A stretch of 64,000 nt of DNA from Gammaproteobacteria bacterium (GCA_965221695.1 OZ244905.1:2240001-2304000), one strand, 5' to 3'. Shown: positions 2,599-52,142, counted from the stretch's first letter. The notes: generated by a model from the letters alone, not told the origin. Program-made: numbers and translations.

Positions 2599-2695
2599 CC
2601 GGCGTGCGCCTGTTCGTACAAAGCCAGGGTCTGGTCCAGCATTCGTTCCAGGGTAAAGCTGCGGTTCGGCGCGATAGTTGGCCTGGCGTTCAGAA
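2345..2695 (-). repeat. degenerate tandem repeat, ~114-116 bp period, 3 copies plus a partial one
   Basis: Anchor RGGTAAAGCTGC at 2421, 2535 and 2651. Confidence 0.9.
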
Positions 2696-3704
2696 AGTCC
2701 TGAACCTTTTCCGCGATGGCAGCCCTGTTACCCGGTTCCACCAGGCCGTCAGGCTGCAGTTCTTCCAGCACTTCGCGGGCGCCCCCGTGGGCGTAGGCGA
2801 CTACCGGACGCCCCAGCGAGAGCGCTTCCAGCGCAGTCCTGCCGAAGGCTTCGGGGATGTTTGCCAGCGACATGACGACATCGGAGATACTCAGCAGTTC
2901 GCGCAGGTCGTGACGCTGACCCAGGAAGCTGATGTCGTTTCCCAGACCGTGCCGGTTAACCATCCGGGTTAACTCCTTGAGGAACCTTTCACGGCGCGGT
3001 TCCGCGCCGCCCGCAACCAGGCCGTGGACATGGGTTCCGGCCTGATTCAGACGCCCGATGATATCGATAAAATCCAGGTGGCCTTTCCAGCGGGTGATGC
3101 GGCCGGGCAGGGTAACCAGTGTCTTGCCCTGCAGTTGCGGCTGGTCAGCGCGCCAGCGCGCCAGCCACGTCGCGGAAGGTCGGTAGCCCTCGGGGAAAGA
3201 ATCGGGATCCACGCCACGGTGAATGATCGATATCTTACCGGGATCTACGCGGGGGTAATTTGCGATGATGTAGTCATGGATAAACTTCGAAATGGCTATC
3301 ACCTTCTGTCCTCGGGTCATGACAGCGCTGTAATGGCCGACGCGGTAGGGGCCGTGTACCGTGGTGATGAACACGGGCCGTCTGGCCTCGGGCATGTTTT
3401 TCCAGGCAAGGTAACAGACCCAGGCCGGCAGGCGCGAGCGCGCATGCAAGATATCCACCTTTTCTTCCAGCAGGAAACGTCGCAGGCGAAATGCCAGCAG
3501 CAGTGTGAATGGGGACTTTTTGCCGACAGGCCAGGTATAGTGCCGGGAACCGCCGGCGGTGAGTTCAGCCGTCAGTGACCCACCGGCGGACATGACCAGT
3601 GAACGATGGCCGCGGCGCGCCAGTTCAGCGGCCACATCAAGAGTCCCGCGTTCCACCCCGCCCGTTTCCAGGGCCGGCAGCGTTTGCAGTACGGTCAAGG
3701 ACAT
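2595..3704 (-). CDS. glycosyltransferase family 4
   Basis: GGVERGT, HARSRLPAW, GRITRWKGH, EAFGRTALEA; start taken at MSLTVLQ (3704). Confidence 0.92.
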   Translation of the reverse strand: MSLTVLQTLPALETGGVERGTLDVAAELARRGHRSLVMSAGGSLTAELTAGGSRHYTWPVGKKSPFTLLLAFRLRRFLLEEKVDILHARSRLPAWVCYLAWKNMPEARRPVFITTVHGPYRVGHYSAVMTRGQKVIAISKFIHDYIIANYPRVDPGKISIIHRGVDPDSFPEGYRPSATWLARWRADQPQLQGKTLVTLPGRITRWKGHLDFIDIIGRLNQAGTHVHGLVAGGAEPRRERFLKELTRMVNRHGLGNDISFLGQRHDLRELLSISDVVMSLANIPEAFGRTALEALSLGRPVVAYAHGGAREVLEELQPDGLVEPGNRAAIAEKVQDFLNARPTIAPNRSFTLERMLDQTLALYEQAHAG

Positions 3705-39436: not shown

Positions 39437-40033
39437 TTACAAGCTGCCTTTTGTCGAGGGCAGAATTCCTTTCATGCGCGGATCCGGTTCAACGGCCACC
39501 CGCAATGCGCGGCCGAAGGCCTTGAAGATCGTCTCCGCGATATGGTGCGTGTTCCTGCCGCGGATATTATCGATGTGCAGGGTTACCATGGCATGGTTGA
39601 CAAATCCCTGGAAGAATTCGCGCAACAGGTCGACATCGAATTCACCCACCCGTGCCCTCGGGTATTCGACATGGTAGTCCAGACCGGGCCTGCCGGAGAA
39701 ATCCAGGACCACCCGGGAGAGCGCCTCATCCAGCGGAACATACGCGTGCCCGTAACGGCGAATCCCGCGCTTGTCATCCAATGCCTGCCGGAATGCCTGC
39801 CCCAGGGAAATACCGGTGTCCTCAACGGTATGGTGCGCGTCGATTTCAAGATCGCCTTTTGCCTTGATGGCCAGGTCGAACATGCCGTGCCGCGCCACCT
39901 GGTCGAGCATGTGTTCAAGAAACGGAACGCCGACATCCAGGCTTGCATCACCCTTCCCGTCCAGGTTCAGGTCGACGGATATCTGCGTCTCTTTCGTCGA
40001 TCTCTTAATCGATGCTCGTCTTTCATTGCCCAT
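39437..40033 (-). CDS. hisB: imidazoleglycerol-phosphate dehydratase
   Basis: [29 protein letters not shown]. Confidence 0.96.
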
Positions 40034-40171
40034 GTTTGTTTGCCAGAGTTGAAGATGTGTGCGAAGTCTAACATACAGAGAAAGGGCGCGCCGGAACATG
40101 CGCTTGCTGTGCTGGGTTCAATGCTTATGTTACTGGGGCAAACAAGGTAAAATGAAGTCAAAGAGTAATAG

Positions 40172-41119
<948 letters not shown>

Positions 41120-41137
41120 AGGTTGCAAAAAGCAACC

Positions 41138-41575
41138 TTAAACCCGCAGCCAGAATGTTACCGGACCGTCGTTGGTCAGACTGACCTGCATGTTTGCGCC
41201 GAATACGCCGGTTTGAACTTGCCCATGGGTTACCTGCACGAAGTCGGCGAGTTCATCGAACAGACGTTGGCCGGTTTCAGGTGGCGCGGCTGAACTGAAA
41301 CCGGGGCGGTTCCCTTTGCGGGTATCCGCAGGCAGCGTAAACTGCGGGACAAGCAGCAGCTCGCCGGCGATGTCCTGCAGGCTCAGGTTCATTTTTCCGG
41401 CGGAGTCGGGAAATATGCGGTATTGGATTATTCTTTGGGCCAGCCGTTTGGCTGATGCGGAAGTATCCTGCTTTTCAACACCGACCAGCGCCAGGATGCC
41501 CCGTTCGATTTGCGCTACGGCCCTGTTTTCGACTTCGACTCGGGCACAGGTGACCCGCTGTATCAGCCCGATCAT
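41138..41575 (-). CDS. dtd: D-aminoacyl-tRNA deacylase
   Basis: IQRV, PQFTL, NDGPVTF. Confidence 0.95.
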
Positions 41576-42225
41576 GCAATAGTGTTAACCCGCTGGTCAT
41601 CGGCAACCAGCAACAGGTCTGCGTGGCGTCGCGCAAACAGGCCGTTGGTGACCACGCCCACAACCTGGTTGAGTTGTTGCTCCAGCTCCGTCGGGTTGAG
41701 TATGGAAAGGTTGTGCACGTCCAGGATGACGTTGCCGTTGTCCGTAACGAAGTCTTCCCGCAGCACCGGCTGGCCACCGAGTTTGACGATTTCCCGGGCG
41801 ACGTGGCTGCGGGCCATCGGGATGACCTCGACGGGCAAGGGAAACGCGCCCAGGACATCCACCAGCTTCGAGTCATCGACGATACAGATGAACCGGTTGC
41901 TGACGGCAGCAGTGATCTTCTCCCTGGTCAGCGCGCCGCCGCCTCCCTTGATCAGTTGCCGGTGACGCGTGGCTTCATCGGCGCCGTCCACGTATACCGC
42001 GAGCTCACGTACACCGTTCAGGTCTATGATCGGAATATTATGTTCTTTCAAACGTTTTTCGGTCGCCACCGAACTGGCCACGGCGCCGTCGATACGATGC
42101 CTGATACGCGCCAGTTCGTCGATAAAGCAGTTAACCGTACTGCCGGTGCCGACACCCACGACCATATCATCTTCAATGTAATCGATTGCGGCCTTGGCGA
42201 CCCGTTGTTTCTTGTCCTGACTCAT
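41572..42225 (-). CDS. rpiA: ribose-5-phosphate isomerase A
   Basis: [23 protein letters not shown]. Confidence 0.97.
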
Positions 42226-42335
42226 GTGGAGGAATTTACCGTTGATATATTTCGGGTTAGCGGTTTTTGCCTGCCTGTTCCCGGTTTTGCAGGGCAGGCT
42301 TTGGCGGAAATCGTGCGTGATGTTATCTTATACAC

Positions 42336-43856
42336 ATGTTTGAAGAATACCAACCGTTAATCAGCGAAGCCGCGTCCAGGGTATACGATGTTGCCCGGCG
42401 GTCCTCCCTGGATTATGCCAACCAGACTTCCCGGACCCTGGACAACCATATCTGGCTGAAGCGGGAAGATCAGCAATTGGTATTTTCCTATAAGTTGCGC
42501 GGCGCGTATAACCTGATTGCCTCGCTGGACAAAGAGCAGAAAGCCAACGGAGTCATCGCAGCTTCCGCCGGCAACCACGCCCAGGGTGTTGCCCTGGCCG
42601 CCGGCAGGATGAATATCAGCGCAACCATCGTGATGCCGAAGACGGCGCCGGAGATCAAGGTGAGCGCGGTCAGGCGCCTCGAGGCCAGGGTGGCGCTGCA
42701 CGGCAATACCTATGACGAGGCCAGGCAGCACGCAGAGGAGCTGGCGTCTGCGGAGGGCAGGACATTCATCCCGCCTTACGACCATCCCCTGGTCATTGCC
42801 GGGCAGGCCACCGTGGGGATGGAACTGTTAGAACAGTGTGAGCAGGCGCCGGACTGTATTTTCGTCCCGGTTGGCGGTGGCGGATTGATCGCCGGAATTG
42901 CGCTGTACGTGAAAGCGAACAGCCCCGACACGCGCATCATCGGCGTGGAACACGATGGCGCAGCCAGCATGTACCGGGCGATGAAAGCCGGAACACGGGT
43001 CTCGCTGGACCATGTTGACATCTTCGCTGACGGCGCTGCGGTGCGGCAGGCCGGAGAGGAAACATTCCGCATCTGCCGGGAATTGGTCGATGAGATCCTG
43101 CCGGTCAATGTTGATGAAATCTGCGCCGCAGTCAAGGATATATTTGAGGATACCCGATCCATCCCGGAACCTGCGGGCGCGCTGGCCCTGACCGGGTTGA
43201 AAAAATATGTGCAGCGGGAGAATCTGCGGGATAAGCAACTGGTTGCCATTTTCAGCGGCGCCAACGTGAACTTTGACCGGCTGCGCCACATCGCTGAACT
43301 GTCAGCGCTGGGCGAGCAGCGGGAGGCATTGATATGCGTAACGATTTCCGAACGTCCCGGCAGTTTCCGCAACCTGTGCCATAACCTGGGGCCGCGCCAG
43401 ATCACGGAATTCAACTATCGGTACTGCGATACCGAACAGGCGCATATCTTTGTCGGCGTACAGTTGCGCAACGGTGTAAAGGAGAAGAACCAGGTACTGG
43501 CAAATCTGCGGGACAAGGGTTACGAGGTGATTGACCTGAGCAATGACGAAGTGGCGAAGATGCATATCCGTTACATGGTTGGTGGGCATGCGGCCGGCAT
43601 CACCGACGAGTTGTTGTACCGGTTTGAATTTCCCGAGCGTTCCGGTGCATTGCTGCATTTTCTCACACAGCTCAGCTCGCGCTGGAACATCAGCCTGTTT
43701 CACTACCGCAACCACGGGGCCGCATACGGGCGCGTGCTCATGGGCATACAGGTACCGTCAGACCAGACCGGAGAATTTCAGGATTTCCTTGACGGCCTGG
43801 GTATTGACTATTCGGAAGAGACGAACAATCCTGCCTACAGGTTGTTTTTGAACTGA
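42336..43856 (+). CDS. ilvA: threonine dehydratase, biosynthetic
   Basis: FSYKLRGAY, SAGNHAQG, two ACT-like domains (FHYRNHG). Confidence 0.96.
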   Translation: MFEEYQPLISEAASRVYDVARRSSLDYANQTSRTLDNHIWLKREDQQLVFSYKLRGAYNLIASLDKEQKANGVIAASAGNHAQGVALAAGRMNISATIVMPKTAPEIKVSAVRRLEARVALHGNTYDEARQHAEELASAEGRTFIPPYDHPLVIAGQATVGMELLEQCEQAPDCIFVPVGGGGLIAGIALYVKANSPDTRIIGVEHDGAASMYRAMKAGTRVSLDHVDIFADGAAVRQAGEETFRICRELVDEILPVNVDEICAAVKDIFEDTRSIPEPAGALALTGLKKYVQRENLRDKQLVAIFSGANVNFDRLRHIAELSALGEQREALICVTISERPGSFRNLCHNLGPRQITEFNYRYCDTEQAHIFVGVQLRNGVKEKNQVLANLRDKGYEVIDLSNDEVAKMHIRYMVGGHAAGITDELLYRFEFPERSGALLHFLTQLSSRWNISLFHYRNHGAAYGRVLMGIQVPSDQTGEFQDFLDGLGIDYSEETNNPAYRLFLN

Positions 43857-43896
43857 TACGTTAACGAGTCGCGAAAGGCGACAGGTAGGGTAAGGT

Positions 43897-44084
43897 GGGT
43901 ATCAACCGTCGTGCCGTTACGGGCGATAAACTTGAACCAAGGGTTCAAGTGGGAACAGCGGGCGTTATATCAGGCTTCCCAGTTCTCGTGGGCATGCACA
44001 CAATAGCGCGGTTCAGTTCCCTCCATTACAGGAAATAAGCTCAAGTTTTTGTAGGCCCGCGCGCGAACACGACAGAAGATACCC
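43897..44084 (-). ncRNA. ssrS: 6S RNA
   Basis: Directly downstream of zapA; complementary ends (GGGTATC...GATACCC); CTTGAACCCTTGGTTCAAG hairpin typical of gammaproteobacterial 6S. Confidence 0.85.
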
Positions 44085-44088
44085 AAAA

Positions 44089-44388
44089 CTAATTGTCACC
44101 GACTAAAACGCCATCAATTTTTGTTTGCAGGCGTTTTACCATCATGTCTACCGATTCAGTATAGTCCTTATTTTTGCGTTTGTATGCAAGCAGTTCATTG
44201 GCAATATTAAGCGCCGCCATAATCACAATACGTTCAGTGCCGACTATGCTGCCGCTGGTTTTCACTTCCAGCAGTTTCTCGTTGAGAAAATCCACCACTG
44301 CATACAACTGTTCCCGCTCATCGTCCGGGGCAGATATCAGGTATTCTTTGTCGAGAATCGTTACTCGAACCGGACTCGATTGTGTCAT
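44089..44388 (-). CDS. zapA: cell division protein ZapA
   Basis: VTILDKEY, ERIVIMAALNIA.E. Confidence 0.92.
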   Translation of the reverse strand: MTQSSPVRVTILDKEYLISAPDDEREQLYAVVDFLNEKLLEVKTSGSIVGTERIVIMAALNIANELLAYKRKNKDYTESVDMMVKRLQTKIDGVLVGDN

Positions 44389-44609
44389 GAACGGGTTTCC
44401 ATCGCCCGCAGCCGCGCAATCATGGATTCGATACGAAACCTTGCCTGCTCTGTCTTTTCAATGAGCACAGCGCGCTCACTGATCAGATTTTTTTGCTGGT
44501 CACGCAAGGCAGAATTCTCATTTTTTAATGCATCGACTGTCTTGATGAGATCATCGACCCGCGCCTCAAGAACCCCCAAATCTACGCTTTCAAGGTTATT
44601 TTCTGACAT
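44385..44609 (-). CDS. TIGR02449-family coiled-coil (ZapB-like) protein
   Basis: LEARVDDLI...LKNEN..LR..ARFRIESMIARLRAME; upstream of zapA. Confidence 0.85.
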   Translation of the reverse strand: MSENNLESVDLGVLEARVDDLIKTVDALKNENSALRDQQKNLISERAVLIEKTEQARFRIESMIARLRAMETRS

Positions 44610-44729
44610 TGATATAGTTTCCGCGGCTGTTTGTTTCCCATAAAACCACTGGTATTCAGTACCAATATAGAACGCGGCTGCAAGGTGGTCAAGTTTGATG
44701 GTAATGGGATAGGAGGCGCTTCCGTCAAC

Positions 44730-44850
44730 ACTGCCACCATACCACTTCCACGGAAGCGGGAGTCCAGTCGAATAGAGTGTCGCCCTTCCACCAAACCACT
44801 CCCGCGGAAACGGGAGTCCAGTCTATTATTCTGTCGACCGCAGGGCGACT
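44730..44850. repeat. REP family A, two tandem units (reverse orientation)
   Basis: accact(t/c)cc(a/g)cggaa(g/a)cgggagtccagtc twice. Confidence 0.8.
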
Positions 44851-44902
44851 CATTATTGCTTTTGACGTTGCATCAAGGTACCGTAAGACATACTTGGAAT
44901 CC

Positions 44903-46225
44903 ATGCTCCACAACATGAAAATCAGTGAAGACAGCAAGCGCCGCAAGAAGCTCATGGACATGCTCGGGGATGACAGCATTGCCATCCTGCCTGCCGCACC
45001 GGAAAAAATTCGTAACCGGGATGTATCCTATCGTTACCGTCCCGATAGCGACTTTTATTACCTGACGGGGTTTGCTGAACCGCAAGCCGTGATGGTGTTG
45101 ATCCCCGGTCGCAGTCAGGGAGAATTTATCCTGTTCTGCCGCGAGCGTGATCCCGAGCAGGAAACCTGGCACGGTTACCGCGCGGGACTGGAAGGCGCGT
45201 GCAATGATTACGGTGCGGATGACGCCTATCCCATTACCGATATGGACGACATTCTGCCGGGATTGCTCGAGAACAGGGAGCGGATTTATTACACCATGGG
45301 AAATGACACTACGTTCGACCAGCGCGTGCTCGGCTGGGTCAACCAGGTGCGAGGCAAGGTCCGCGCCGGCGTTCACGCGCCGGAAGAATTCATATCCCTG
45401 AACCACATCCTGCATGATATGCGCTTGTATAAAAGCCGGCAGGAGATCCAAAAAATGCGCAAGGCCGCAACGATCTCGGCAAATGCCCATGTGCGCGCAA
45501 TGCAGACATGCCGGCCGGGGCTGATGGAATACCAGGTAGAGGCTGAACTTCTGCATGAATTCATGCGCCAGGGTGCGCTTAGCGCCGCCTATCCCTGCAT
45601 CGTCGGCAGCGGAGTAAACAGTTGCGTACTGCATTACACCGATAACACGCGGGAAATGCAGGAAGGTGACATCCTATTGATTGACGCCGGCGCCGAATAT
45701 GAATGTTATGCGAGCGATGTTACCCGCACTTTCCCCGTTAACGGCCGTTTCAACAGTAGCCAGCGCGCCGTCTACGAGGTCGTTCTGGCCGCCCAACTTG
45801 CCGCGATTGACGCAGTGAGGCCGGGAAATCATTGGAATGAACCCCACGACGCGGCAGTTGACGCGTTGACGGAAGGATTGATCTCTCTCGGGATCCTCAA
45901 GGGAACGTCGAAAAGCCTGGTAAAAGAGGACGCTTACAAACGCTATTTCATGCACAAGACCGGACACTGGCTTGGCATGGACGTACACGATGTCGGCGAT
46001 TATAAGCTGGGCGAACAGTGGCGCTTGCTGGAACCCGGCATGACGTTGACCATCGAACCGGGATTGTATCTTCCGCCGCAGGAGGGCCTGGCCGAAAAAT
46101 GGTGGAATATCGGCGTGCGTATCGAAGATGACGTGCTGGTGACAAAATCAGGGAATGAGGTGCTGAGTCGGGATGCGCCCAAAAGCATTTCCGAGATTGA
46201 GGCATTGATGGCGCATAACGGATGA
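44903..46225 (+). CDS. pepP: Xaa-Pro aminopeptidase
   Basis: DSDFYYLTG, YASDVTRT, HWLGMDVHD, TIEPGLY, GVRIEDD. Confidence 0.95.
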   Translation: MLHNMKISEDSKRRKKLMDMLGDDSIAILPAAPEKIRNRDVSYRYRPDSDFYYLTGFAEPQAVMVLIPGRSQGEFILFCRERDPEQETWHGYRAGLEGACNDYGADDAYPITDMDDILPGLLENRERIYYTMGNDTTFDQRVLGWVNQVRGKVRAGVHAPEEFISLNHILHDMRLYKSRQEIQKMRKAATISANAHVRAMQTCRPGLMEYQVEAELLHEFMRQGALSAAYPCIVGSGVNSCVLHYTDNTREMQEGDILLIDAGAEYECYASDVTRTFPVNGRFNSSQRAVYEVVLAAQLAAIDAVRPGNHWNEPHDAAVDALTEGLISLGILKGTSKSLVKEDAYKRYFMHKTGHWLGMDVHDVGDYKLGEQWRLLEPGMTLTIEPGLYLPPQEGLAEKWWNIGVRIEDDVLVTKSGNEVLSRDAPKSISEIEALMAHNG

Positions 46226-46233
46226 ACTGAGCT

Positions 46234-48750
46234 GTGTATGATATTGCAGTGATTGGCGGCGGTATGGCCGGCGCTAGCCTTGCCTGTGCCCTCGCCGGTG
46301 AACAAACCAGTATCGCCCTGGTGGAAGAGCGGCCGGCGCGCGCCGGGCATACCCACAATGATGATGCCAGGGGTATTGCCTTGTCACGTTCTTCCTTGCA
46401 AGCGCTGAAAGGGACGGGATTGTGGCAGAAACTGGAACCATCAGCCTGTCCCATTGAGCACATACATGTCAGCGCCAGGGGCCGTTACGGCTCTGTCAGG
46501 ATGTCTGCCGGCATGCTCGATCTCGACGCGCTGGGATACGTGGTTCCCGCGCAGGAACTGGGGAATAAACTGTTGCAGGAGATTGCCGGGCATGCCGACA
46601 TCGAGATGTTCTGCCCGGCAAAAGCGGAAAAGATAGAACATGAACCGGGTTCCATTGCGGTGCATGTCACGCGGCCTGATGCAGATACAGATAAAGACAC
46701 AGATACAGTCATCCGGTGCAAGCTGCTGGTAATCGCGGATGGCGCGTTTTCCACCCTGAGAGACCTGGCCGGTATCTCGACAAGCATCCATGACTACCGG
46801 CAGATGGCGATCGTTTCGAACGTTACGGTTTCCAAGGAACATCACAACACCGCATACGAGCGGTTTATTCCCGGTGGCCTGGTCGCGATACTGCCGTTGA
46901 AGGGGAAAAACCGCTGCGTCACGGTCCTGGTATCACCGGCGGACCAGGCGGAAGATCACCTGCAACTGGACGACGAGGGTTATCTGAAGCTGTTGCAACA
47001 GGCTTTCGGCAAACGCCTTGGAGAATTAACCGGTCCGGGTCCCAGACAGTCCTGGCCGCTGGTTTTATTACAGCCCGAACGGCAGATAGCCCAACGGATC
47101 GTGCTGCTGGGCAACGCGGCCCATACTATCCACCCCAACGGCGCGCAGGGATTCAACCTGGCCCTGCGGGACATGGCAGCGCTCGCGGGACTATTGCGCG
47201 CAACGCTACGGGACGGCGGCGATGTGGGCGCGACGGAGGTTCTGGAAGCATACGCATCATCCAGGCAAGCCGATCAGCGCCGGGTCATCCGCTTCACGGA
47301 CTTGCTGCAAAAGACATCCGGACGCACCGATACGATAACGCCCGCATTACGCGGCAGCATGATGCTGGCGTTGGATGCGTTGCCGAGACTGAAAAATGAG
47401 TTCATCCGGCGTGCGGCGGGGTTGCAGACACCATCGGCGCCAATAGCAGCGCCCAAACCCGGGGAGCCGAGCAAGACCGACCGGAAGAGCAAGGCAGGAG
47501 TGAAGCATGAATCCGGCACAAGGCGCCGCGCACGACCCAGCGCTCCTGATACGGAACTGCTTATCATTGGCGGCGGCGTGATCGGCGCCACCATGGGATT
47601 ACTGGCCGCATCGGGCGGCATGGATTGCATCCTGGTCGAGCGCAACAGCCCGCCGGTGGACGATAAACCGGTGGAAGATGCCCGGGTGCTGGCCCTGACC
47701 GCGGCATCGAGGAAGATTCTGACCAGGGTGCGGGCCTGGCAGCAGCTTGCGGAGCAGGATATCGGCCTGTTCCGGCAGATGCATGTCTGGGACGAGAACG
47801 GCAGCGGCAGCCTGCACTTCGACAGCGCCGCCATCGGCCTGCCGGCGCTTGGCCATATCGTGCCCCAGAATTTGCTGGTCAGCGCGTTGGAATCCGTGCG
47901 TGTGGGCCTGCCGGGAATTTCCGTACACACAGGCGCCGAACCGTCGCACCTCACAGACGCAGGCAATGCCATCAGGGTGACGTTGAGTGATGGCCGGGAG
48001 GTTTCGGCAAAACTGCTTGTTGCCGCCGACGGTACCAGGTCAAAGGTCCGGCAGCTCGCCGGCATAGGGTACCCGGTCCACCGGTATCGGCAAGCGGCTG
48101 TCGCGGGCATCGTGCGGACGGAATTGAACCACGGGCAAGTGGCGCGCCAGCGGTTTTTGTCGAATGGCCCACTGGCGTTCCTGCCCATGGCAGACCCGAA
48201 CCGCTGCGGGGTGGTCTGGTCGACCGCGCCGGAACATGCGGACGAACTGCTTGCAATGGATGATACGGATTTTCTTCAGGCGCTTGAAGAGGCTTTCGAA
48301 TCCACCCTGGGCGCGCTGTCTGATGTCGGCGTCAGGCAGGGATTTCCGTTACAGAGAGCGCAGGCCCGGCGTTACTGTACAGAGCGCATCGCGCTGGTCG
48401 GCGATGCCGCGCATTGCGTCCACCCACTGGCCGGCCTGGGCGCCAACCTGGGGCTGCTTGATGTCGCCGCGTTGTTCCAGGTCATTACGGCTGCGGGCGC
48501 GAAACGCCGCGACCCCGGCGGCAGCGCGGTATTGAGAAAGTATGAAAGATGGCGCAAAGGCGAAAATTATATGGTGATCATGGCCCTGGAAGGATTAAAA
48601 TACTTGTTTGAAACACAGGCTTTACCGATCCCGGGACTGAGGAATGCCGGGATGGAACTGTATAATTCGTTACAGTCGTTGAAGAATTTCACGATGCGCC
48701 GGGCCACGGGCCTGGCCGGCGATTTGCCGGACTTGGTCAGCAGTAGTTAA
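46234..48750 (+). CDS. ubiH: fused UbiH-like + UbiI/UbiF-like FAD-dependent ubiquinone hydroxylases
   Basis: Two complete flavin monooxygenase units: GGGMAG..ADG..GNAAH.IHP..QGFNL and GGGVIG..ADG..GDAAH.VHPLAG.G.NLG; pepP-ubiH-ubiI synteny. Confidence 0.85.
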
Positions 48751-48764
48751 GGCGCGATGACCGA

Positions 48765-50447
48765 ATGGATAATTTAACCCCCCCACACTTTGTGCGCAAG
48801 ATCATCGCTGATGATATCGAACAGGGCCGATGCCCTGAAGGTATCCGTACGCGTTTCCCCCCCGAACCCAACGGTTTCCTGCATATCGGCCATGCCAAGG
48901 CCATTTGCGTGAATTTCGGCATGGCCGCGGAATACCAGGGCAAATGCAACCTGCGCTTCGATGACACCAACCCGGAAAAAGAGGACATGAAATATGTGGA
49001 GGCCATCCAGGAGGATGTACGCTGGCTGGGGTTTGACTGGGAAGACAGGTTGTATTTTGCCTCCGATTATTTCATGCGGCTGTTCGAGTTTGCGATCGAA
49101 TTGATTGAGCAGGGCAAGGCTTATGTCGACAGCATGAGCGCCGATCAGATAAGGGAATACCGCGGTACCCTGACGGAACCGGGGACCGACAGTCCTTTCC
49201 GGAACCGGCCGGTTGCCGAGAACCTGGACCTGTTTCGCAGGATGAAAGCGGGAGAATTTGCCGACGGAGAACATGCGCTCAGGGCAAAAATCGATATGGG
49301 GTCGGCCAACCTGAACATGCGGGACCCGGTGATATACCGGATCCGCAGGTCCGTCCATTATCGAACAGGGGATGCCTGGTGCATCTATCCCATGTACGAT
49401 TTCACCCATTGCCTGTCGGATGCGCTGGAGCATATCACCCACTCACTGTGCAGCCTGGAATTTGAGGACCACCGGCCGTTGTACGACTGGTTTATCGATA
49501 ACCTGGCTACCCCCTCGCGCCCGCACCAGTACGAGTTCGCCCGCCTCAACCTGGAGTACACGGTGCTGAGCAAGCGCAAGCTGATCGAATTGGTGGAGGA
49601 CGGCCATGTGGACGGCTGGGATGACCCGCGCATGCCTACCCTGTCCGGACTGCGGCGGCGCGGCTTCACGCCGCATTCGATACGGGAATTCTGCGCGCGT
49701 ATCGGCCTGACAAAAAGCGACACCGTTATCGATGCGAGTGTGCTGGAACATGTGATCCGGGACGAGCTTGGCGCCGCGGCGCCGCGGCGTATGGCAGTAT
49801 TGCGCCCCTTAAAGGTGGTGATTGAAAACTATCCGGACGACAAGGAGGAACTGCTGGATGCCGCCAACCACCCGCAGGACCCGTCCATGGGTTCGCGCAA
49901 GGTGCCGTTCAGCAACGTGCTTTACATAGAACGGGATGATTTCATGGAAGATGCCCCGAAGAAATTTTTCCGGCTGGCGCCTGGCCGGGAAGTGCGTCTG
50001 CGCTATGCCTATTTCATCACCTGCAACGAAGTCATCAAGGACGAGAAGACCGGGACGGTGATGGAATTGCGTTGCAGCTATGATCCGGCAACACGCGGCG
50101 GCAACGCCCCCGACGGGCGCAAGGTCAAGGGCACGCTCCACTGGGTATCGGCCCGGCATGCGCGCCCGGCGCAGGTCAGGCTGTATGACAGGCTGTTCTC
50201 CGTCGCCAACCCGGACCGGGGCGATCAGGACTGGAAATCCTACCTCAATCCGAATTCACTGGAGACGCTTGGCGAGTGTCTCATCGAACCCGACCTGGCG
50301 CAGGCGCAGCCGGAGCAACGCTTCCAGTTCGAGCGGCTGGGGTACTTCTGCGCCGAGAAGGAAGACTGGCGCGAGGACAGCCCGGTGTTCAACCGCATCG
50401 TGACGCTGCGCGATACCTGGGCAAAGATAAGCAACAAGAGGAGCTGA
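48765..50447 (+). CDS. glnS: glutamine--tRNA ligase
   Basis: [34 protein letters not shown]. Confidence 0.96.
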
Positions 50448-50448
50448 C

Positions 50449-51345
50449 ATGACAGACTCGAACACTTCACTATTCCAATCAGACATCAACAGTCTTCCCC
50501 TGCTGAACCGGGGCAAGGTGCGTGACATCTACGATGTGGACGCCGACCACCTGCTGATCGTCACCAGCGACCGTATCTCCGCTTTTGACGTGGTGTTGCC
50601 CGACCCGGTCCCCGGCAAGGGCAGCGTATTGACCACGGTGTCCAATTTCTGGTTTGCCCGCACAGAGAACCTGATCGCCAACCACCTGACCGGCCGCAGC
50701 CTGGCTTCCGCCGGTCTGAGCGAAGATGAGGTCAAGCAATTGGAAGGCCGGTCGATCGTGGTCCGGAAGCTGCAGCCGCTGCCGGTGGAAGCCATCGTGC
50801 GCGGCTACATCATCGGCTCAGGCTGGAAAGACTACCAGCGCACCGGCGCGGTCTGCGGCATCGAACTGCCGGCCGGTCTGGAACAGGCGCAACAATTGCC
50901 GGAGCCGATATTCACGCCCTCCACCAAGGCCGAGGCCGGCGAACACGATGAAAATATCAGTTTTGCACAAACCGTGGAACTGCTGGGCGCCGAACTGGCC
51001 GAAAAAGTGCGCACGCTCAGCCTGACTATCTACCGGCAGGCCGCGGAATATGCCGCTGAACGGGGGATCATCATCGCCGACACCAAGCTGGAATTCGGTT
51101 TTGACAGTAACCGCGAGTTGTACCTGATCGATGAAGTGCTGACCCCGGATTCATCCCGCTTCTGGCCCGCGGATTCCTACCGCACCGGCATCAGTCCGCC
51201 GAGTTTTGACAAGCAGTTCGTGCGCGACTACCTTGAAACCCAGGACTGGAACAAACAAGCGCCCGGCCCGGCATTGCCGGAGCAGGTTATCCAACAGACA
51301 GCCGCGAAGTACAAGGAGGCCCAGGACAGGCTGCTCGACGCATAA
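50449..51345 (+). CDS. purC: SAICAR synthetase
   Basis: [33 protein letters not shown]. Confidence 0.96.
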
Positions 51346-51353
51346 CACGCAAA

Positions 51354-52142
51354 ATGATCCCACTCCACGACGACAACCCCACGAGTATTTTCCCGGTACT
51401 CACCGTTACCTTCATCGCGGTCTGCGTACTGGTCTTCCTGTGGCAGGCGTCCCTGGGTACGCAAGGCTACCAGGCGGCGATCTATGCCCTGGGAGTCATC
51501 CCCGCGGTGTTGCTGGACAACGCAATACTGCCCCCGGAACTGTCGCTGGTGCCGCCCTCCATGACCGTGTTCACCTCCATGTTCCTGCACGGCGGCTTCA
51601 TGCACCTGGCCGGCAACATGCTGTACCTGTGGATCTTCGGCAATAACGTAGAAGATGCGATGGGCCATGGCCGCTTCATCGTATTCTACCTGCTGTGCGG
51701 AGTCGCGGCGGTGTTCGGCCAGGTGCTGCAAGACCCGTCATCCGAGATTCCGATGATCGGCGCCAGCGGCGCGATCTCCGGGGTGCTCGGCGCGTACCTG
51801 TTGCTTTACCCCCGCGCCCGGGTGCTGGTGCTGATCCCACTGGGATTCTTCATACAACTGGTCAGGCTGCCGGCGCTGTGGGTACTGGGACTGTGGTTCG
51901 CAATACAATTGATCAGTTCCGCGCTCACCTCGTCGGAAGGCGGAGGCGTGGCCTGGTTCGCCCACATCGGCGGCTTTATCGCCGGCATGGCGCTAATCCC
52001 GTTCTTCAAACGCGGCAACAAGACACTTTTGCATAAAGCCCACGGCTCCAAACGGTACAGCAAACGTGTAAGCCACTGGCCGCAGGGACAACATGACCAA
52101 CTGGAGAACGCCGCAAGACGCTGGTCGAAGCGGGACAGGTAG
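51354..52142 (+). CDS. rhomboid-family intramembrane serine protease
   Basis: HLAGNMLYL, GASGA, AHIGG. Confidence 0.93.
   Translation: MIPLHDDNPTSIFPVLTVTFIAVCVLVFLWQASLGTQGYQAAIYALGVIPAVLLDNAILPPELSLVPPSMTVFTSMFLHGGFMHLAGNMLYLWIFGNNVEDAMGHGRFIVFYLLCGVAAVFGQVLQDPSSEIPMIGASGAISGVLGAYLLLYPRARVLVLIPLGFFIQLVRLPALWVLGLWFAIQLISSALTSSEGGGVAWFAHIGGFIAGMALIPFFKRGNKTLLHKAHGSKRYSKRVSHWPQGQHDQLENAARRWSKRDR

Follow-up and report, generated by a model that had tools for sequence, protein, structure and literature searches.

A UbiH–UbiI double hydroxylase in a single open reading frame across a gammaproteobacterial genus

Two flavin adenine dinucleotide (FAD) monooxygenases of ubiquinone synthesis, UbiH and UbiI, appear to be joined in one chain by an open reading frame (ORF) in a 64,000-nucleotide stretch of DNA from a Gammaproteobacteria bacterium (GCA_965221695.1, OZ244905.1:2240001-2304000), which is the whole stretch analysed and is referred to below as the window. 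In E. coli, UbiH and UbiI are members of one Ubi complex, and ubiH and ubiI are usually neighbouring but separate genes. We assign a probability of roughly 0.85 to the reading that the ORF of the window is a genuine, vertically inherited fusion and that its product is one chain (~90 kDa, to judge by chain length) with two complete class A flavin monooxygenase units, orthologous to UbiH and UbiI and connected by a flexible linker. A natural single-chain fusion of this kind had been proposed in an earlier, sequence-only reading of the window, and the proposal is borne out by the retention of the UbiH-like and UbiI-like units in one frame across the genus and by the grouping of the fused genes in one clade.

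The genus was surveyed by a six-frame search of 40 relatives and the window's own genome (G000), followed by stop-to-stop ORF analysis. Both halves lie in one open frame in 19 of the 23 genus genomes (G000, G001, G002, G004–G008, G010, G011, G013–G016 and G018–G022), and they are split in G003, G009, G012 and G017. The fused open frames measure 807–902 aa, leaving out G021, which is clipped by contig ends yet spans the junction; in G006 the fused frame is broken near residue 40, away from the junction. In the sister genome G008, the protein shares 96% identity with that of the window, and its 44-residue linker is the same. A search of relatives for double flavin monooxygenases of ~840 aa had been named as a check on the fusion, and it returned full-length, stop-free orthologues in 18 other genus genomes; a word-indexed protein search listed ~55 full-length genus relatives of 823–900 aa.

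The fused genes group together in phylogenetic analysis. In an IQ-TREE phylogeny of 25 rows, computed from the concatenated N and C halves with the linker excluded and G021 omitted (outgroup G023, G024 and G038), the 18 fused rows group in a single clade (support 99/99, starred), the four split species of the genus fall outside it, and one change between the fused and split states suffices. In a FastTree phylogeny of 95 rows (28 fused and 67 split), the 17 fused genus rows form a clade with support 100 (starred). Among the fused members, identity with the window protein falls to about 61–64%. Because the fused clade is single and has diverged to this extent, the fusion is, as dated by sequence divergence, old and not recent, and the term recent, by which it had first been described, has to be given up.

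For identification of the two halves, NCBIfam scans were run on the separated segments (residues 1–404 and 439–838), with membership of the Ubi-OHases subfamily (TIGR01988: UbiH/UbiF/VisC/COQ6) defined by a hidden Markov model score that reaches the curated cut-off, 224.65 bits. The N half scores 356.3 bits and the C half 389.8 bits, in keeping with the original description of a single 838-aa ORF with two complete FAD monooxygenase units. The chain matches PF01494 (FAD_binding_3) with 210.9 bits in two stretches, and one set of GxGxxG, DG and GD motifs, the fingerprints of class A flavoprotein monooxygenases, is present in each half; together these identify the protein as a class A enzyme. The top NCBIfam matches of the N half are the UbiH equivalogs NF004356 (367 bits) and TIGR01984 (366.5 bits), and among solved structures this half is closer to UbiH (7mwa, 209.7 bits) than to VisC/UbiI (4k22, 127.8 bits). 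The top match of the C half is the general model TIGR01988, its top equivalog is NF006461, 'FAD-dependent 2-octaprenylphenol hydroxylase' (331.6 bits), and its closest solved relative is VisC/UbiI (4k22, 229.5 bits, versus 146 bits for UbiH 7mwa); it lies directly downstream of the ubiH unit, and the gene order pepP-ubiH-ubiI is retained at the fused locus. Since the halves score under the UbiH and UbiI equivalog cut-offs, we infer their regioselectivities from best hits, synteny and elimination, by which the N half would be the UbiH orthologue (C1 hydroxylation) and the C half the UbiI orthologue (C5 hydroxylation).

In a comparison of 53 fused sequences that represent several lineages, the invariant columns of the N unit include G13, G170, G293-N294-A295-A296-H297, H300-P301, Q305-G306, N308 and D313, and those of the C unit include G446, G448, G451, D599-G600, G723-D724, A726-H727, H730-G734, G736, N738 and D743. 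An AlphaFold2 prediction of the whole chain, for which the 53 fused sequences served as alignment, has two well-folded domains with a block pLDDT (predicted local distance difference test) of mostly 85–92. Judged from these columns and from the model, both halves look intact. Relative to the 96%-identical G008 protein, the N unit of G000 is longer by four residues, DTDK (residues 151–154, 46684-46695), within an Asp/Thr/Lys-rich, repeat-like stretch; the difference resembles a short, frame-preserving tandem indel in a surface loop.

Compared with UbiH (TIGR01984/NF004356; 7mwa), the N half is alike end to end (profile positions 1–381 of 382), has a GD motif of the GNAAH type and directly follows pepP, but it differs by its covalent join to the next enzyme, by its sub-cut-off score and by HPNGAQG at residues 300–306, which aligns with HPVAGQG in 7mwa. 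The C half is like UbiI/VisC (NF006461, NF005949; 4k22) in its best solved relative, its top equivalog and its place downstream of ubiH; it differs in being without its own start codon, in its fusion to UbiH, in its score of 331.6 versus 633 bits and in HPLAGLG at residues 730–736, which aligns with HPLAGQG in 4k22. A deviation of both units from the usual HP.AGQG motif had been pointed out before. The spellings given there are correct and do differ from those of 7mwa and 4k22, but they are not specific to the fusion. HPNGAQG is the commonest form, found in 64 of 95 distinct N halves, split loci among them, in a sample that is biased by the use of HPNGAQGF as one of the patterns for fishing loci; HPLAG[L/M]G occurs throughout the genus, including the split genomes G003, G009 and G012. 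Because split relatives carry both variants, these are, on the sequences sampled, older than the fusion and also belong to stand-alone enzymes.

A scan of the G000 genome returned two units above the TIGR01988 cut-off, both within the fused ORF, and one Coq7 (PF03232, 146 bits; NF033656, 252.9 bits, cut-off 180). As the only two Ubi-OHase units of the genome lie in the fused ORF, both halves appear to be needed. Ubiquinone synthesis involves three ring hydroxylations, for which UbiH, UbiI and Coq7 are one known set (discussed in PMC5069965). The fused protein would carry out the C1 and C5 steps and the separate Coq7 the C6 step, which would account for all three O2-dependent hydroxylations; the fusion would also set UbiH and UbiI at a ratio of 1:1 and hold these partners of the Ubi complex together. 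We infer that both halves are active and that the chain is uncleaved. Outside the window, at G000:C1:2785777-2786904 on the minus strand, there is a distant FAD monooxygenase-like frame (TIGR01988, 83.3 bits, below the cut-off; open frame 564 aa), which to judge by its sequence is probably another class A monooxygenase and no ubiquinone hydroxylase.

With respect to its origin, the fusion arose once within the genus, most likely in an ancestor in which the ubiI start lay directly behind the ubiH stop codon and in frame with it; loss of this stop codon would have joined the two genes, and the linker would have lengthened and drifted thereafter. Among the split genomes, the ubiI start is in the ubiH frame at junctions that read TGA-GTG (G003), TGA-CGG-ATG (G009) and TAG-GCC-GTG (G017), and in G012 ubiH and ubiI overlap in another frame. 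Since in split relatives the ubiI start follows the ubiH stop in frame, stop loss would be the simplest and most likely route. Sampling of 68 distinct split loci from Gammaproteobacteria gave 24 in which ubiI is in the frame of ubiH, close to the one in three that chance alone predicts, and 20 in which a lone stop separates the two open frames; by the latter count, many genomes are one substitution short of a fusion. Loci with both genes in the same frame and a single stop between them are L083 (G003) and L086 (G009), with TGA in both, and 18 more. Low-level stop read-through at such a junction would give a fused protein even in 'split' species.

The junction of G017 (L087, ~2660-2900, plus strand) is present as a tandem duplicate with a unit of ~123 nt, composed of the ubiH tail, the TAG stop, the GTG start and the first ubiI codons (through the LLVVGG stretch). 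The copies are few differences apart, which results in two in-frame TAG stops ~40 codons from each other, and the duplication could be recent, or it could stem from faulty assembly of a fragmented genome. The fused linker may derive from a junction duplication like that in G017, but the G017 copies are nearly identical and look recent, and nothing links them to the fused clade.

Several observations weigh against a vertically inherited UbiH–UbiI fusion as set out above. Taken alone, the N half stays just under the UbiH equivalog cut-offs (367 versus 384 bits for NF004356, 366.5 versus 392.2 bits for TIGR01984), and the whole fused protein exceeds them (653.9 bits for TIGR01984, 641.5 bits for NF004356) solely through the summed units. 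The C half is far below every UbiI or UbiF equivalog cut-off (331.6 versus 633 bits for NF006461, 287.3 versus 620 bits for NF005949), and its score with the UbiF-type model NF004318, 324.5 bits, is nearly that with the UbiI model. The predicted template modelling score (pTM) of the AlphaFold2 model is 0.51, a value at which the relative placement of the domains is not confident and no conclusion on inter-domain packing is drawn. As regards the origin of the fusion, the position of G017 in the IQ-TREE phylogeny is an open fork, the fused linkers (43–80 aa) exceed what read-through of a junction like that in G003 or G009 would yield (~20 aa), which calls for extra insertions, and the junction alignment is weak.

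The fusion might also be merely formal, with one half serving as a dead scaffold or with the two halves being separated by internal initiation or by proteolysis of the linker. Such a state would be compatible with the predicted lack of structure in the linker, with the scores of the C half far under the UbiI equivalog cut-offs and with GD motifs that in both halves differ from those of the solved enzymes. However, the FAD-binding fingerprints of both halves are invariant in the 53 fused sequences, the motif variants are also found in split relatives, where each protein must work alone, the genome is without any other Ubi-type flavin hydroxylase that could act as a substitute, and the frame stays open through linkers of 43–80 codons in 19 genomes. 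We therefore regard a merely formal fusion as unlikely and favour a chain in which both units are functional.

The linker itself was described beforehand as a Pro/Lys/Arg-rich segment of ~45 aa, which agrees with the 44 residues found between the flanks GL-Q and DTE, 17 of which are P, K or R by hand count, and with the disorder predicted for it: residues 400–438 have a pLDDT <50 and are without secondary structure in the AlphaFold2 model. Between conserved flanks, the linkers of 13 fused orthologues measure 43–80 aa and are hypervariable in both length and sequence. The linkers of G000 and G008 show four silent and no replacement codon differences over 44 codons, and because they differ there by silent codons only, frame 0 is taken as the coding frame of the linker. 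Pieces of the frame-0 linker (TP.. at the start, ..KTD.. in the middle and ..APDTE at the end) reappear in the sister G002 group, whose linkers were read directly.

In the +1 frame relative to the ORF, the linker contains AGGAG (47496-47500), TGA (47501-47503), agc (47504-47506) and ATG (47507-47509), which the sequence-only reading had presented as a fossil junction, that is, as the old ubiH stop with the ribosome-binding site and start of ubiI. These coordinates are exact. The interpretation as a relic did not stand up: the motif is confined to G000 and G008, lies off the aligned stop and would have to have been shifted by two compensating indels in the G000/G008 lineage. The strict composite motif, defined as AGGAG and then a stop ≤12 nt upstream of an ATG and in its frame, is rare, with 4 occurrences in 128 kb (the window, both strands) and 1 in the fused ORF, for a motif chosen post hoc; its layout of stop, one codon and start also matches the real junctions of G009 and G017. 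Both points would suit a relic. Against this, only G000 and G008 carry the motif among the 13 fused linkers scanned, a set not including the six of G021 and the G002 group. The fusion is ancestral to a clade of ~61% identity, in which the linkers have otherwise diverged past recognition. Upstream of the TGA, the +1 frame is open for just 19 codons. In a MAFFT alignment of the junctions, which is weak, the split relatives have their stop ~9 codons ahead of LLIIGGG; this corresponds to about 47527 instead of 47501, and the motif lies ~26 nt upstream of the aligned stop column. When the G000 linker was compared in all three frames with the linkers of other fused genomes, no frame-shifted similarity emerged: every z was 2.6 or lower, and the best value for the +1 frame (2.6) was equal to the best for frame 0 (2.6). 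The pieces that do reappear in the G002 group are those of frame 0. A true relic is on these grounds very unlikely, and the AGGAG-TGA-agc-ATG arrangement is probably due to chance.

That two separate genes were joined by a single-base error of sequencing or assembly within the linker, as had been offered as the other explanation of the single frame, is refuted by comparison with the relatives and keeps next to no probability: the genome is a single contig, and the arithmetic by which one base inserted in 47510-47546 gives two overlapping ORFs, via the off-frame ATG at 47507 and the TGA at 47547 in the +2 frame, is correct, but 19 of 23 independently assembled genus genomes share the single frame, the 18 others with stop-free frames and linkers that differ in sequence and length, the linker of G008 departs from that of G000 by its four silent changes only, and the 'restored' genes would have a ubiH tail of ~45 aa and a ubiI overlap of ~40 nt, where split relatives have tails of ~10 aa and abutting genes.

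The features of the locus are collected in Table 1. The position after pepP, as first described, was confirmed, with a gap of 8 nt between the pepP stop (46223-46225) and the start of the fused ORF; the gap between the end of the fused ORF and glnS is 15 nt. The listed pepP ORF opens with GTG at 44777, 50 codons ahead of the NF008131 match (from residue 51), and the true pepP start is probably a later, internal ATG. Divergent from pepP are zapA (44089-44388, minus strand) and a TIGR02449-family gene (44385-44609, minus strand), and beside zapA there is a 6S RNA (Rfam RF00013, 78.3 bits, full length) at 43899-44081 on the minus strand; a similar ssrS-zapA arrangement is present beside pepP-ubiH-ubiI in E. 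coli. In an Rfam scan of 40000-52000, the 6S RNA was the sole match, outside the fused ORF.

Table 1 Coordinates of the fused ORF, its parts and its neighbours, in window numbering
Feature	Position	Strand	Details and basis
Fused ubiH-ubiI ORF	46234..48750	+	838 aa, GTG start, stop codon included; stop-free full-length orthologues in 18 other genus genomes
UbiH-like FAD monooxygenase unit (residues 1-399)	46234..47430	+	NCBIfam, PDB relative 7mwa, pLDDT
Inter-domain linker (residues 400-438), predicted disordered, P/K/R/A/S-rich	47431..47547	+	pLDDT; hypervariable among fused orthologues
UbiI-like FAD monooxygenase unit (residues 439-838)	47548..48747	+	NCBIfam, PDB relative 4k22
GD-type FAD motif, N unit (residues 293-308)	47110..47157	+	contains HPNGAQG
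GD-type FAD motif, C unit (residues 723-738)	48400..48447	+	contains HPLAGLG
Off-frame (+1) AGGAG-TGA-agc-ATG, probably fortuitous	47496..47509	+	raw sequence, linker scan
TGA in +2 frame	47547..47549	+	raw sequence
pepP (Xaa-Pro aminopeptidase), upstream neighbour	44777..46225	+	NF008131 476.9 bits, above cut-off 465
glnS, downstream neighbour	48765..50447	+	TIGR00440 776.3 bits

Double hydroxylases are also found elsewhere. A large set of ~815–859-aa proteins with 35–38% identity and 95–99% coverage also came out of the word-indexed protein search, and several of them are Cellvibrio proteins named '2-octaprenyl-6-methoxyphenyl hydroxylase' by NCBI; when read, the proteins of this set have a UbiH-type first half and a UbiI-type second half with an unrelated linker in between. 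When 1.84 billion representatives were searched exhaustively, the best 150 included 11 of 760–870 aa, and in all 11 of these double-length representatives the first half is nearer the N half of the window protein and the second half nearer its C half. The Cellvibrio-type double hydroxylases (~840 aa) share with the window protein the order of their halves, UbiH-like before UbiI-like, and the presence of a linker (~25–40 aa), but at 31–38% identity they are further from it than many unfused relatives (43–60%), and the linkers are unrelated.

A survey of 400 class genomes scored gave at least one stop-free double protein besides that of G000, namely that of G312, which is 765–770 aa long and almost without linker. 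Other long-frame candidates of the survey (~813–1084 aa) were rejected, as only G312 proved to have a truly stop-free double protein among 20 regions inspected. The open-frame lengths of the survey were not used as evidence, since they include a value of 811 for G003, whose two genes are separated by a stop; the survey tallies take in G165, G320 and G332, which are flagged as unpublished, and no specific claim rests on these.

The 95-row FastTree phylogeny, from which the truncated loci L049, L055, L060, L061, L072 and L080 were left out (a single-domain ORF being the best match to both query halves), needs three changes between the fused and split states, of which the starred branches force at least two; its branches are long and the deeper placements unsafe. 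On account of their low identity, their unrelated linkers and the changes in the tree, the Cellvibrio-type doubles are read as separate fusions, and comparison of the sequences points to at least two, probably three or more, separate fusion events. The loci L038, L046, L076 and L081 and several 'uncultured Enterobacteriaceae' contigs carry ubiH-ubiI pairs that are 43–52% identical to the window protein. Their records name Klebsiella pneumoniae, Gemmatimonadota, Planctomycetota or Enterobacteriaceae, an earlier version of the tree groups them with Gammaproteobacteria, and the titles suggest metagenome bins with the wrong taxonomic label.

In the literature searched, which was mostly judged by title and abstract opening, no description of a natural UbiH–UbiI fusion was found, and the words 'fusion' and 'fused' have zero occurrences in the main texts of the hydroxylase phylogenomic studies PMC5069965 and PMC10597321. 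The earlier remark that such a fusion is not known to have been described is in line with this literature, but annotated fused proteins are already public, for instance from Cellvibrio. What is new is the lineage-wide, stable single-chain UbiH–UbiI architecture; both enzymes and the pathway are well known, and the known chemistry is unchanged by the fusion. A natural fusion of two neighbouring ubi genes is likewise represented by ubiT-ubiU of Zymomonas mobilis, in the O2-independent ubiquinone pathway, which the authors of that work took to back a common function of the two (10.1101/587956); there the proteins are different (SCP2 lipid-binding; U32 peptidase-like hydroxylase subunit), and so is the pathway.

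As a 'Rosetta stone' fusion, the single chain provides independent evidence of UbiH and UbiI acting side by side, with their ratio fixed at 1:1, and the lone stop codon between the frames in 20 of the 68 split loci sampled illustrates how easily such a fusion forms. There are also consequences for annotation: databases name the fused proteins as UbiH alone, and a genome's tally of hydroxylase genes may come out one short. For structural biology, the fused proteins are natural constructs of a complex whose structure is still unsolved.

A further proposal, which we put forward tentatively and with more doubt than confidence, is that UbiH is obligately and directly paired 1:1 with UbiI in the complex that synthesises ubiquinone, and that selection for this pairing drove the same UbiH-then-UbiI fusion at least two to three times (in the genus, in Cellvibrio and in other gammaproteobacterial lineages). 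If this is true, the natural single-chain enzymes would offer a handle on the construction of the hydroxylase module in the Ubi metabolon and on the transfer of the intermediate from the C5 to the C1 step.

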